A program made the position numbers. Positions 48,001-52,513 of a DNA stretch of 52,513 bases are shown here, piece by piece (position 1 is the first letter of the stretch; each line of letters opens with the position of its first letter). The DNA comes from a candidate division FCPU426 bacterium. Lineage in GTDB: Bacteria; Oederibacteriota; JAAXVQ01; JAUVAV01. The DNA is taken from contig DAOWGI010000032.1 of assembly GCA_030637655.1 (NCBI GenBank), forward strand, positions 1 to 52,513, read 5' to 3'.

Positions 48001-51000
48001 AATTATCTTTTCCTGGCCGGGCCGGAATTCATGATAACCGAATGTGTTTTTTAACACTTCCTGAGGATTCATTATGCTCTCACTTTCTTTAAGTACGCGG
48101 TACGGGACGTTGTTTGGGAATACGCTGACCCACGCGCCGGCCGCCTTTCCCGATCTCGATCATTTTGCTGATGTCAGCAAAATGATCCTCAATACGATGC
48201 CCGCTATTGAAACACGCCATCTTTGATAAATTCGCGATAAAACTCAACCGCTTTTGCTTGTTTCGTATGAAAATGTGCCAATATCTCTTTTTTTGCCTGC
48301 CACTCATTCTTTTTCTTCCCTATTAAGACTGCATGACCTGTCCACGGATATTTATCCAATGCTTCAACGGTCTTGATAAAACCAGCGCGTACGGGATTGC
48401 CCGGTTTAATCCGCGGGTAATAATATGGTAAACTCCACCAGGTATGCTTAATCGTTTCTGTCTCGCCATACTTCTTATGACAACATCAATCAAAAATAAT
48501 TGCACATTTATTAAATATTTTTGCCGTACTTGCCGCCCTTATCCGATTAACCGAAAGCCGTCCCCTACCAGTCCCTACCACTACCACACCAAGTAGGTGG
48601 TAGTCCTTATGCTTCTTAAGATTCCGGTTTCGCTCCACGGACTATCCACAATTCATTGCCATTATCTTTTGCAATTAATTCCAATTCCGGCAGGCTGGCT
48701 GCCATTTTATTCATTATATTTATGGTTTTATCGTCTCGGGCCACGATATAGTAAATATTTAATTTTTTTAACATGGCATTAAACTTATCCACACTTATAT
48801 TAGCAGCCCCGGTTGAAATATCTTTTATAATATGAAAATCAAAAAAATATTTCTCCTGTGCATTGGACGATCTCGCTGTCCAGCCGCCTATCATTTTATG
48901 CTGATGATGCATTTGATAATACAGTATTTCTAATGCGTTCCAGCCCCAGGGCGGAGCAGGTAAATCCAAAACCACGTTATTTTCATTTGAATCCTGTCGA
49001 ATAATATTATAAATTTCCGGGACTCTCGGTTCATGTGTTGGAAATGGGATTGGCAGATATTCAACCAAGATTATTAACAGCAAAAATATTTGTAAAATTC
49101 TTTTTTTAACCGCATTCACTTTGATATTTTCAATTGTATAGTAGCCGGCAATAGAAACCAATACAGCCGCGGACATAATCGCCATAATAATGAATCTTGC
49201 CGGAACACGGGCTCCATTGATAACAGGTAAATAGTGAATTATTGTATAGGGCATTGGAAAAATTACTTTTATCCCATGAAATGAAAAAAGATGTGTTCCG
49301 GGAATGGCGTTGAGTGAAATACCTTTAAAATTCAAAAACGGTCCCAGGGAAAAAAGAATAAAAACAGCGCCAACAATGCACCAAAACCGCACGCTATTTT
49401 TGGACCAATATTTAACCCCGGCCAGAACACATAGTATAATTACCGAATATCCAACAAACCCGTGCATTTCAGCGCCTGGAAAAGGTATTTTCATTTTAGA
49501 AAACATTTTTACCATAAAATCACCCCAAACAAAATGCATATCCGAAGGCATTACTAAATGCAGGACATCCATTGAAAACCGTTCGGCCATGCCCCATCCT
49601 TCACCATGAATCGACATAATGTTATATTCTTTTATTGCTTTGAAAGCCATGATCCAAAAGGGGGTTAAAACCAGAATATAAACTCCGGCAATCGGCAATA
49701 CTTTTTTAAGTATTTCTTTATATTTTTTTAAGTCTAATTGAGCTTCATATATAACCCAAATACCCAATAGAATAATCAAATAAATAAAAAGCTGATAATC
49801 ACAAAAAAATTGATACCCCAGGAGCACCCCCAATGCCAACAAAGTAGTCCACCTGAATTGTTTCACATAATAATGCCAGAGTAACACAATCCAGGGCATG
49901 GCTTCCGTGCTGATCATATTAAGATGACCATGAGCATGCGCCATTTGATTGGGCGCAAAAGCAAATATAATTCCACTGATAAATGCCAACATGCGGCTGG
50001 GAACATACTGTAATACTAAAAAATATGTTCCCAGAGCGGCCACGATAAAAGAAAACATAAACAAAATATTGTAAGTCAAAATCCAATTTCCGGAACTAAA
50101 ACTCAAAAGGAAAGCAAGCGCAGCTTTGGCAGGTGTCCAAGCATGAAGAAAGAGATTGACTTGCAATGGATAATACATAAAATCCGTAATAAATGGATTT
50201 TGTAATTGAAGAATGCTTTTTTTGAAATGCCAAAATCCCCACAAGAATTGATATACATCCCCGGAAACCCCGGGTAATTTGGCTTCAAAATCCAAAATAA
50301 GCGGATAGGTAAATACAATTGCCGCAACGACAAAACCTACGAGGGCAATAACATCTTTTTTTATCTGAAAAATTTTATTTTTCCCGGTATTATCTAACAT
50401 GCCTGCTAATTTCCAATCGCTATCCAATTCACCAGGCATTCGGCCCCAGCGCCACTTAAATCAACTGATTTAAGTGCAAAACCGGTGGCAGTGATATTAT
50501 AAACACGAACTACAACATTAATATCATGTCTGTTTGGTGTAGCAACAACAATTGGTGGATTGCTAAAACCATATATAGTAACGCCCATATCCCCATATTT
50601 ATCTGTTCCAATCATACCGGTGACAATTTTGGGATTACTAATCCCGCCATTAACTGTCGGCGCCCAGGGCGCTTTGGCTGAGGTTACTTGCCCATCACCA
50701 ATTTCATAACTTCTGATTGTTCCATCGGCGATTTCATTCCAGGTTATATTTTCAGCGGCTATATCTGAACTTATAATGCTCCTGTCTACAATCTTGTTTG
50801 AAGTTATCGTATTATCAGCAATATCTGAATTTGTTACAGCACCATCAACAATTTTTGATCCGGTGATTGAATTATCCGTTACCTGATTCGCATGCTCCGC
50901 CCGCATGGCATACGGTATACTACTCAGCGGTTTCCTCGGTGTCATGGCAGATGGTTCTCCGGAAACCCACATCTCCAAATAGTACTGAGAATTAAAATCC

Positions 51001-52513
51001 AATCCTGCTATGGCAAAGGTCGTAATGGATCCCAGCAACGCGGTAAAATAGCCTCTTTTCGTTGTTACAGTGTGGTTTTCGCTCCATAATTGAGTCCCGC
51101 CTGACAAAGAATTCCAAAAACTTATGGTAATGCCATAAGAACTATCCGCTACCGCTATACCGGCAGAATCGGTCAGTCTGCCTTGATAATTAATCGTAAC
51201 CGGCACAGCCGCTTGTACGCTCATGGCCATTGTAAACATTATGATGATAGCACTTGAAATCTTTTTCATTTTTTCCTCCGGCACATTAATGTTTTATTCC
51301 TAAATCCCTGGTCTTTTCATCCCAGAACAAAACCAGGGGGATATTAGTCACTATTTGATTAACGCGATTTTCTTTTTTACAACCGTTGTCTTACCATCAT
51401 TGCTGGTGGCTTTAAAATACAAAATATAGACTCCATTGGCCATATTAGCCGCGTTCCAGATCCAGCGGTTACGCCCGGCCGGCAGCCTGTCCCATCTCCT
51501 GGATAAAACTTCCTGATTCTGCGGTGTGAATATTTTGAGTTCGACTTTTGCCGCAACTGCCAGGTCAAAAACAATATTCCCCCGTGTCCCCCGAATCGGA
51601 TTTGGAGCCACGTAGACCCAATCTTTGTGCATGATTTCTCCGGTAAAGTAACGGATCGCGGTCTGGGTTACGGTTATTGTCCTGGTAAGCGTAAGTGTCG
51701 GAGTAACGGTTACTGTAGGTGTAACTGTTGGTGTGGGGTTGGTTACAAAATAATCATTGAAAAACCCATGCTGAATGGACTTGGTCTCGCTCCATACCTG
51801 CCCAATTCCCAGATCACCCAGGCAATCAATTTTTTTGATATTCGCGCCTGTACAGGTATTGCCCCCGGCATTGATAATCATCTCATCCACACGGTAGTTG
51901 GCGGATGAGGCGGCAAATACGGAGGTACACATATAAAGCAATAAAATGCTACTGCATAAAATAACCGAATAACTTCGCACATGTACTCCTAAAATGATGT
52001 GTTATAACTTCTTTCCAAATATAGCAAAAACTAATTTTTTCTATCTTATTATGCATCCGAAGAAAAATACAGTTGTTTCCTTAGGTCTGCATGAAATATT
52101 TATCTTTTTCCACTTCTGACGGGCGAACACAAGGTTCGCCCCTACGCCATCCGGGCCGACAATAGAATCGACCCTTTCGGTGTGACGTCCCCCTGCATGC
52201 TTCGCTATGTCAATTTTTATTTTTCGTCAATTTGTCAAAAAACAATTCTCACTTTGACGATCGAAGGGAGGCTTATTTCTTTTTTCTATTCACAACTTTC
52301 CAGGTTACCTGCGCCAACCCGATCAATGTCAACACCAGACCCACAATTGTCACTGACCTGGTCAATTCCCGCAAATAGCCAAGTACTCCCAGATACACAA
52401 AGGTCGTATTCACTGCGAATCCGCCAAAAAGCAGGATTAATCCGAGCGGCAATAGTATTTTTTTCTTTTTTACTTTTGGTTCATTATTCATAAGTCACCA
52501 GACTTTTTTTGTA

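Follow-up and report, generated by a model that had tools for sequence, protein, structure and literature searches.

We propose that two adjoining genes in the window analysed here (52,513 nucleotides, contig DAOWGI010000032.1, from a candidate division FCPU426 bacterium) probably encode a two-part surface-display cassette, in which a trimeric fibre without a T9SS C-terminal domain (CTD) and an adaptor that carries one would be exported jointly, the fibre then being tethered through its adaptor. The evidence comes from the architecture of the two proteins, from the linkage of their gene families across phyla, from a three-fold repeat in the ‘head’ of the adaptor, and from a predicted complex between that head and three copies of the fibre base. 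The T9SS and fibres of this type were already known; the novel elements, as far as the literature searched goes, would be the head itself, the three-fold docking modelled for it, and its occurrence on unrelated anchors.

A two-gene cassette

The genome-wide survey’s note had placed an adaptor and a fibre at 50406..51980, and both genes were indeed found there, on the minus strand, in the order adaptor, fibre and then a 607-residue membrane protein (Table 1). A Shine-Dalgarno-like motif lies 4-5 nt upstream of the adaptor and fibre starts, and a scan for promoters and terminators gave signals near chance level. Pfam and NCBIfam searches returned no match for the membrane protein, which we take to resemble a GT-C-type glycosyltransferase; the equally placed neighbour of a relative’s fibre gene matches a membrane arabinofuranosyltransferase model (E 1e-5). 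Those homologues of adaptor and fibre that carry source names are from candidate division FCPU426.

Table 1. Features of the cassette and its downstream neighbour, in window coordinates
Feature	Position	Strand	Details
Adaptor gene	51351..51980	-	209 aa, GTG start; signal peptide, head, linker, T9SS type A-like CTD
Docking head, adaptor residues 23-79 (57 aa)	51744..51914	-	Strand repeats of S-x-N-Y type, three in number, period 19 residues
Thr/Pro-rich linker, adaptor residues 80-109	51654..51743	-	60% T+P
CTD-type beta-sandwich, adaptor residues about 112-209	51351..51647	-	Final strand contains Lys
Fibre gene	50406..51269	-	287 aa, ATG start; signal peptide read by eye; no CTD
MAT-like N-terminal ‘INYQG’ beta-sandwich, fibre residues 21-129	50883..51209	-	Model pLDDT 83
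Stalk, fibre residues 133-202	50664..50873	-	Seven 10-residue repeats; the part matching phage tail-fibre families
Variable tip	50406..50657	-	Weak H-type lectin match, residues 235-285
Polytopic membrane protein	48616..50439	-	607 aa; downstream, overlapping the end of the fibre gene

Like the conserved beta-rich domain of about 130 aa that opens mosaic adhesive trimer (MAT) fibres, the base domain of the fibre directly follows the signal peptide; it matches NF053851, the NCBIfam model of the domain with which the MAT adhesins of Bdellovibrio begin, with E 9e-9, at 35 bits and thus below the cut-off of 60; the five fibres of this genome (G000) score between 20.8 and 37.8 bits, and cover about positions 2-79 of the 162 in the model. 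At E 0.001 or better, NF053851 matched 120 of 123 aligned fibre N-domains, with one relative, in G096, exceeding the cut-off (66.1 bits); no genome with many above-cut-off matches was seen among 37 genomes. Paralogues of the fibre can be aligned only across the base, which implies a constant base with variable C-terminal ends, and the tip in the window matches PF09458 below cut-off (E 6e-4; 20.3 bits against 24).

These proteins had been described in the survey as phage-tail-fibre-like, with a match to phage tail-fibre PHROGs. That match was recovered (E 3.7e-12), but it is limited to stalk residues 129-206, so that the description fits the stalk and not the MAT-like base, for which tblastn found no match in 50,697 phage records. 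A remnant tail fibre of a phage, tailocin or injection system, left in the chromosome, would account for the stalk; the hydrophobic leader on the fibre, the base domain and the surroundings of the cassette (housekeeping and envelope genes when read by eye, with no recognisable phage genes among them) all stand against such an origin, which we regard as hardly credible. On sequence grounds, MAT-like bacterial adhesins is a better name for these proteins than phage fibres, and we file them as MAT-like rather than as MAT members.

A CTD profile run on this genome picked out 73 other ORFs that end in a CTD and none of the fibres, and the earlier claim of five CTD-less secreted fibres is borne out by exactly five fibre-domain genes; at loci from many phyla, none of 100 fibre ORFs (some of them incomplete) showed a CTD. 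Neither an autotransporter domain nor a lipoprotein motif was found in the fibre. Among solved structures there was no sequence match for the base, the head or the whole fibre, and fold searches returned generic Ig-like matches only (best Z 7.2), which show neither kinship nor novelty. The fibre is predicted to be a homotrimer.

In the adaptor, the CTD of the window protein scores 17.5 bits with TIGR04183, below the cut-off of 23; PF18962 matches most of its close homologues, and a paralogue on contig C56 lies above both curated models (29.1 bits with TIGR04183 and 29.3 with PF18962). The modelled CTD fold aligns with the PorU CTD over 92 residues (Z 10.3, rmsd 2.6), a match that ties with other Ig-like folds, and the PorZ CTD is likewise matched among other such folds. 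The Thr/Pro linker may be O-glycosylated.

Linkage of head and fibre genes

The four clear heads of this genome each adjoin a fibre gene, three of them on short proteins (191-209 aa) encoded upstream and one on a long protein (369 aa) encoded downstream; the fifth fibre gene is preceded by a PorV-family gene, and its distance from a head is 5.5 kb. The earlier statement that four of five fibres sit beside a small adaptor gene is thus right as to position, and as to size for three of the four. Two further statements agree with our own counts: all 15 genomes of the order have the fibre family, with 1-14 copies each, and a tandem array does exist, with eight fibres of different ends behind a single adaptor (G002:C12). 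A tally of 30 loci, by which 19 had a short CTD-type protein or CTD cargo nearby, two an adjacent PorV gene and nine neither, was not reproduced, our own count being 15 of 30 loci with a head (1.5-kb flanks).

Linkage was then counted in wider sets, descriptively, given that kin are not independent. In this phylum 43 heads were counted over 31 genomes, about a third of them having belonged to the training alignment, and 41 of the 43 have a fibre on the same strand no more than 5 kb away (0.8 expected); conversely, 47 of 81 fibres have a head within 5 kb and 34 have none. From a second phylum (that of G034) we took 40 genomes, unselected, evenly drawn and none of them used for training: 26 of their 33 heads have a fibre within 5 kb (0.3 expected), most of the remaining seven being near contig ends, and the genomes divide into 14 with both genes, 21 with neither, one with the head only and four with the fibre only. 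In 28 genomes selected for their fibres, 27 have a head; these genomes hold 254 fibres and 62 heads, at least 36 of which lie within 5 kb of a fibre (2.1 expected; 104 fibre positions were unlisted). Wherever a head lies within 5 kb of a fibre, the two share a strand. Lastly, 77 fibre loci drawn from many phyla were examined, and a head gene lies no more than 6 kb away at 35 of them, as against none in the reversed-sequence control.

The converse does not hold throughout. Using the first head model at E 0.001, no head was found in five fibre-bearing genomes of this phylum; a broader model gave two weak matches there (E 6e-4 and 7e-4) and none in G010, G023 and G029. In one further genome (G116), 13 fibres were counted and the head was not matched. 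Such headless fibres may be due to breaks in the assemblies, to adaptors that several fibres share, or to heads that have diverged, but the head may also not be an obligatory partner of the fibre.

Distances among heads and among bases are correlated (Mantel r 0.64, 38 pairs), which joint inheritance could also yield and which is not counted here as proof of contact. Joint inheritance could equally explain the linkage, and, with so many fibres lacking an adjoining head, one might suppose that the two are co-regulated surface proteins which travel as a cassette and never touch. We find this highly improbable, since the linkage persists across phyla while the tail of the adaptor is swapped, since one locus (L106) has head and base in a single reading frame, and since the complex described below, with its score, its controls and its three-fold register, would be hard to square with it.

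A three-fold head and its predicted docking

The head consists of three 19-residue repeats: its profile, when compared with itself, peaks at lags of 19 and 38, and the lag-19 peak was reached by none of 2000 column shuffles. Modelled alone, it is of low confidence (pLDDT about 38-49). An arrangement with one repeat per fibre subunit was proposed before any complex was predicted.

When one head was modelled with three fibre bases, the median score was 0.65 (runs of 0.65, 0.80 and 0.60), and the best of three controls reached 0.02; in calibration, 116 of 157 solved complexes and 2 of 215 mismatched pairs had scored at or above the mark, counts that hold only roughly for a 3+1 prediction with custom alignments. 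The runs have at least 93% of contacts in common, with a partner pLDDT of at least 72. In the predicted complex the three base copies fold around the head with pLDDT of 90-92, only the partner being scored, and the head itself now reaches 73-84. All three base copies are modelled as contacting the head through residues 6-15, the first strand, which carries the INYQGRL motif; the equivalent contacts on the head fall at positions 13/32 and 8/46, and so are spaced by 19 and 38 residues. The columns of the predicted interface are also more conserved than the rest (0.63 versus 0.51, p 0.012). As neither part has a solved sequence relative, and the base has no clear fold match, a pass based on recall of known structures is less likely. 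The prediction supports binding without demonstrating it, and we consider it likely from the model that the head docks on the trimeric base of the fibre.

A 1:3 module that donates strands could also nucleate a trimer, and we considered whether the head might be a folding aid that templates trimer assembly in the periplasm, in the manner of a non-covalent S74 domain, to be shed or exported separately thereafter. The S74 chaperone domain, typical of MATs, is absent from all five fibres of this genome, as one would expect if the head stood in for it; it is carried, however, by relatives with the same base (10 of the 120 longer homologues listed), and the head is fused to many sorting and anchoring tails for which a chaperone would have no need. 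Such a role strikes us as improbable.

A search of 1.84 billion representative sequences with the head gave 345 proteins at E 0.001, and 133 of 149 proteins taken from the 150 matches listed have a full-length head match, usually just after the leader. The tails that follow include at least CTDs, dockerins, an IPTL-type tail and other short tails, those without a Pfam match having been read by eye; at the cross-phylum fibre loci, 11 of 36 head proteins show a CTD and 25 have none in view, some ending at the edge of the locus. In Omnitrophota the head stands at the start of RHS proteins with a Tc-type middle region. Among 61 small genomes, which we take to be Patescibacteria, the head occurs in 12 and the fibre in 20, with both present in 11 of the 12; there, a fibre is found no more than 11 kb from 10 of 15 heads, and, of the eight heads examined, five are on proteins that also match, below cut-off, the Pam pilin domain. 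A MAT-like fibre is encoded at a distance of 2-10 kb from the PamT-like genes that bear the head. Weak or divergent heads were also seen on a CTD protein in G016 and at G000:C38, and an Atlas search with the head returned unnamed matches under 0.9.

The head is thus not specific to the T9SS, being found also on dockerins, PamT-like pilus proteins and RHS shells. The dedicated T9SS adaptor that the survey’s note envisaged stands as a physical adaptor, with the linkage, the three-fold repeat and the complex prediction in its support, and falls as one dedicated to the T9SS. More broadly, and here we are evenly divided, the head could be a general socket for MAT-type trimeric fibres across bacteria: the CTD form would export untagged trimers via the T9SS, with the signal supplied in trans, the PamT form would mount a host-binding fibre at the tip of the CPR pilus, the dockerin, short-tail and RHS forms would attach fibres elsewhere, and a divergent form would hold the MAT fibres of Bdellovibrio. 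The same head on many surface anchors in unrelated bacteria suggests how such fibres are attached.

Neither the head nor T9SS export in trans was found described in a literature search, whose coverage left out most subscription papers, nor in the accessible parts of PMC9251779, PMC13689555 and PMC12750041.

Export route and relation to known systems

Within this genome assembly (91.6% complete), SprA, a C25 peptidase (PorU-type) and GldM were not matched. For SprA, PF14349 and TIGR04189 gave no match, and the controls were silent as well; two near-complete genomes of the same family (G006 and G009) encode a 2,100-residue SprA that exceeds the curated cut-off, and the central part of this protein was found in all 17 other genomes of the phylum tested. 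In G006, SprA adjoins lptF and lptG, which are also missing from G000, so that an assembly gap is the likely cause of its absence. PorV-like genes are present, with eight PF19572 matches (six above cut-off), and a PorV-family gene reaches 118.7 bits with NF033709 (cut-off 90). The GldM model found nothing in five genomes, two with strong SprA matches among them, and its positive control was silent; a C25 peptidase occurs in G006 and G009, far below the PorU cut-off. A barrel-like ORF of 1,247 residues (G000:C7:25604-29347), which an Atlas search linked to a cluster bearing SprA_N (0.87), had been entertained as the translocon, and was dropped as it is full-length in only 5 of 17 genomes tested and a true SprA had been found in relatives.

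Bringing these findings together, we suggest the following sequence of events. The fibre would leave the cytoplasm by Sec export and form a trimer, as predicted, with its conserved MAT-like base, its stalk of repeats and a tip for binding that can be exchanged, domains that are all seen in the sequence. One adaptor would then bind per trimer, each 19-residue repeat, in the predicted complex, placing a beta-strand alongside the INYQGRL strand of a separate subunit, so that a single head chain fits a three-fold base by virtue of having three repeats. The CTD of the adaptor would be recognised by an SprA/PorV-type system, the components of which are present in relatives, and fibre and adaptor would most likely cross the outer membrane together, since the fibre itself lacks a CTD, an autotransporter domain and a lipoprotein motif, and stay tethered through the adaptor. 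As fibres outnumber heads, a single adaptor type probably serves several tips; in other lineages, the same head is carried on other anchors.

A fibre without a CTD needs either a CTD-tagged partner or another export machine, and it is the latter that would apply if the adaptor were a tether only, with the head binding the base as modelled and the fibre leaving by another route, for example type II secretion, to dock outside the cell. The head does occur outside a T9SS setting (it is found on PamT-like proteins that have a Pam pilin domain, on dockerins and on short tails), and some genomes with fibres and SprA lack a clear head. We know of no T9SS in Bdellovibrio. Its MAT fibres nonetheless reach the cell surface, according to the accessible text of PMC10769870. 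Two observations weigh the other way: fibre and adaptor share operons and both have Sec-type leaders, and so would come together in the periplasm, in which the head, by prediction, stays unstructured as long as it is unbound; and minimal head-plus-CTD proteins dominate where SprA is present (a CTD at 26 of 30 head loci). We judge the tether-only reading unlikely, and infer that co-export with the adaptor, followed by tethering, is to be favoured over docking after separate export. The piggy-back export put forward in the survey’s note accordingly survives as one of these two readings, which the present data do not separate.

In cohesin-dockerin systems and in donor-strand pili, as in the proposed cassette, a portable module joins exchangeable effectors to an anchor, strand donation being the mode of binding. 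No sequence relation of the head system to either was found, no search aimed at it having been made, and, unlike them, the head would act as one pseudo-three-fold chain on the exposed edge strands of a homotrimer, as modelled.

The adaptor shares with T9SS type A cargo a signal peptide and, at its C-terminus, a CTD-type sandwich with a terminal Lys, and its lineage has SprA and PorV relatives; a GldLM/PorLM motor was not detected with the GldM model described above, for which the positive control was silent. The CTD of type A cargo binds PorV inside SprA, and the cargo described in the accessible text of Lauber et al. 2024 (PMC10994853) carries its own CTD, whereas the CTD here would act in trans for a trimer. 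If so, the T9SS would handle not only cargo that bears its own tag but also oligomers tagged in trans, and a function would be found for a large family whose members, in phyla without cultured species, are listed as ‘hypothetical’ proteins.

The closest known counterparts of the fibre are the MATs of Bdellovibrio bacteriovorus, all 21 of which begin with this N-terminal domain, for which the accessible text of Caulton et al. 2024 (PMC10769870) gives no structural homologue in the PDB. As far as that text goes, the fibres resemble the non-S74 MATs in being multi-copy, and in the order of their parts, with a conserved base rich in beta-structure straight after the signal peptide, then a stalk like that of phage fibres and, last, a tip that varies; they are shorter (255-422 aa versus about 600-1,000 or more). 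They differ further in that their base aligns with no more than the first half of NF053851, scoring below cut-off, and in being paired with a head protein. The surface element that binds the MAT base awaits identification, according to the same text.

A similar question stands on the side of the adaptor, whose head matches the N-terminal part of the model for PamT, the tip pilin of the CPR Pam pilus, in a weak match that spans only positions 6-92 of 241 and scores 31 bits against a cut-off of 240. Unlike PamT, the adaptor has no pilin domain, the truncated Ig-like Pam pilin domain (NF058581) being unmatched in it. In the accessible text of Troman et al. 2026 (PMC13278184), PamT is placed at the tip of the Pam pilus, with a tail-fibre-like gene conserved beside the pam operon, host recognition is left open, and the N-terminal repeats of PamT are neither described nor assigned a role in holding the fibre. 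The partner of the MAT base and host recognition by the Pam pilus are thus matching open questions, and a 57-residue module with a predicted interface makes both of them testable.

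Anchors and contexts of the head and base

The adaptor's head also forms part of PamT-like proteins, where it is joined to a Pam pilin domain; these occur in five loci, with large MAT-like fibres encoded downstream of them. In Omnitrophota, it makes up the N-terminus of RHS proteins of 1,500-2,050 aa whose middle region is Tc-type (loci L145, L055 and L065), and a short fibre gene lies at a distance of 0-10 kb.

At L106:4195-12324, the head (at residue 27) and the fibre base (at residue 602) are encoded together in a single reading frame, at least 2,710 aa long, and in further large proteins the base sits far internally, between residues 820 and 2,000 (loci L043, L058, L056 and L154:3578-9586, two of them from records titled as archaeal). 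Within G000 itself, a secreted ORF of 157 aa (G000:C38:41996-42469) has a weak, divergent head (11.6 bits), with no fibre found near it, the ORF sitting near the contig end; a CTD protein of genome G016 (L178:46-1782) starts with a head resembling this divergent form.

Head-bearing proteins and SprA in other loci
Protein	Location	Source
PamT-like	L132:5907-6665	
PamT-like	L133:12809-13504	
PamT-like	L134:6553-7278	
PamT-like	L135:14363-15058	
PamT-like	L137:5796-6542	
Head-RHS	L145:3727-9885	record titled Ca. Velamenicoccus archaeovorus
SprA	L174:7633-13965	genome G006
SprA	L176:5680-12195	genome G009

Fibre neighbours and other genes

Directly 3' of the fibre gene there is often a polytopic membrane protein (window 48616-50439, G000:C117:10208-12037, L151, L152), which we take, by resemblance, to be probably a GT-C glycosyltransferase; such proteins may glycosylate the fibre or the linker.

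Elsewhere on the minus strand of the window lie a secreted-looking protein of 1,262 aa with BNR repeats (37589-41377), and another of 556 aa with no match in Pfam (42667-44337), followed by a small membrane ORF; this last arrangement recalls that of toxin-immunity pairs. Two small, overlapping ORFs (45332-46049, minus) resemble a nucleotidyltransferase and HEPN-type toxin-antitoxin pair. Further afield in G000, a 1,247-aa protein (G000:C7:25604-29347), with an outer-membrane-barrel-like C-terminal end and a weak match to the SlpA barrel, adjoins a CTD protein and occurs patchily among relatives; some 30 giant ORFs of 2,000-12,000 aa are spread over many contigs, and many of them have in common an unusual N-terminal leader of similar kind.

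T9SS components in the phylum

SprA, the T9SS translocon, was found in all 17 other genomes of the phylum that were tested, full-size in two and with its central part matched across the 17. A model of the motor component GldM gave no match in five genomes, two of them with strong SprA matches, with positive controls also silent. We assume that the phylum of G000 lies outside the FCB group. Abstracts in the literature describe T9SS as confined to Bacteroidota or the FCB group; in G000's phylum the system may be pared down or powered in another way.
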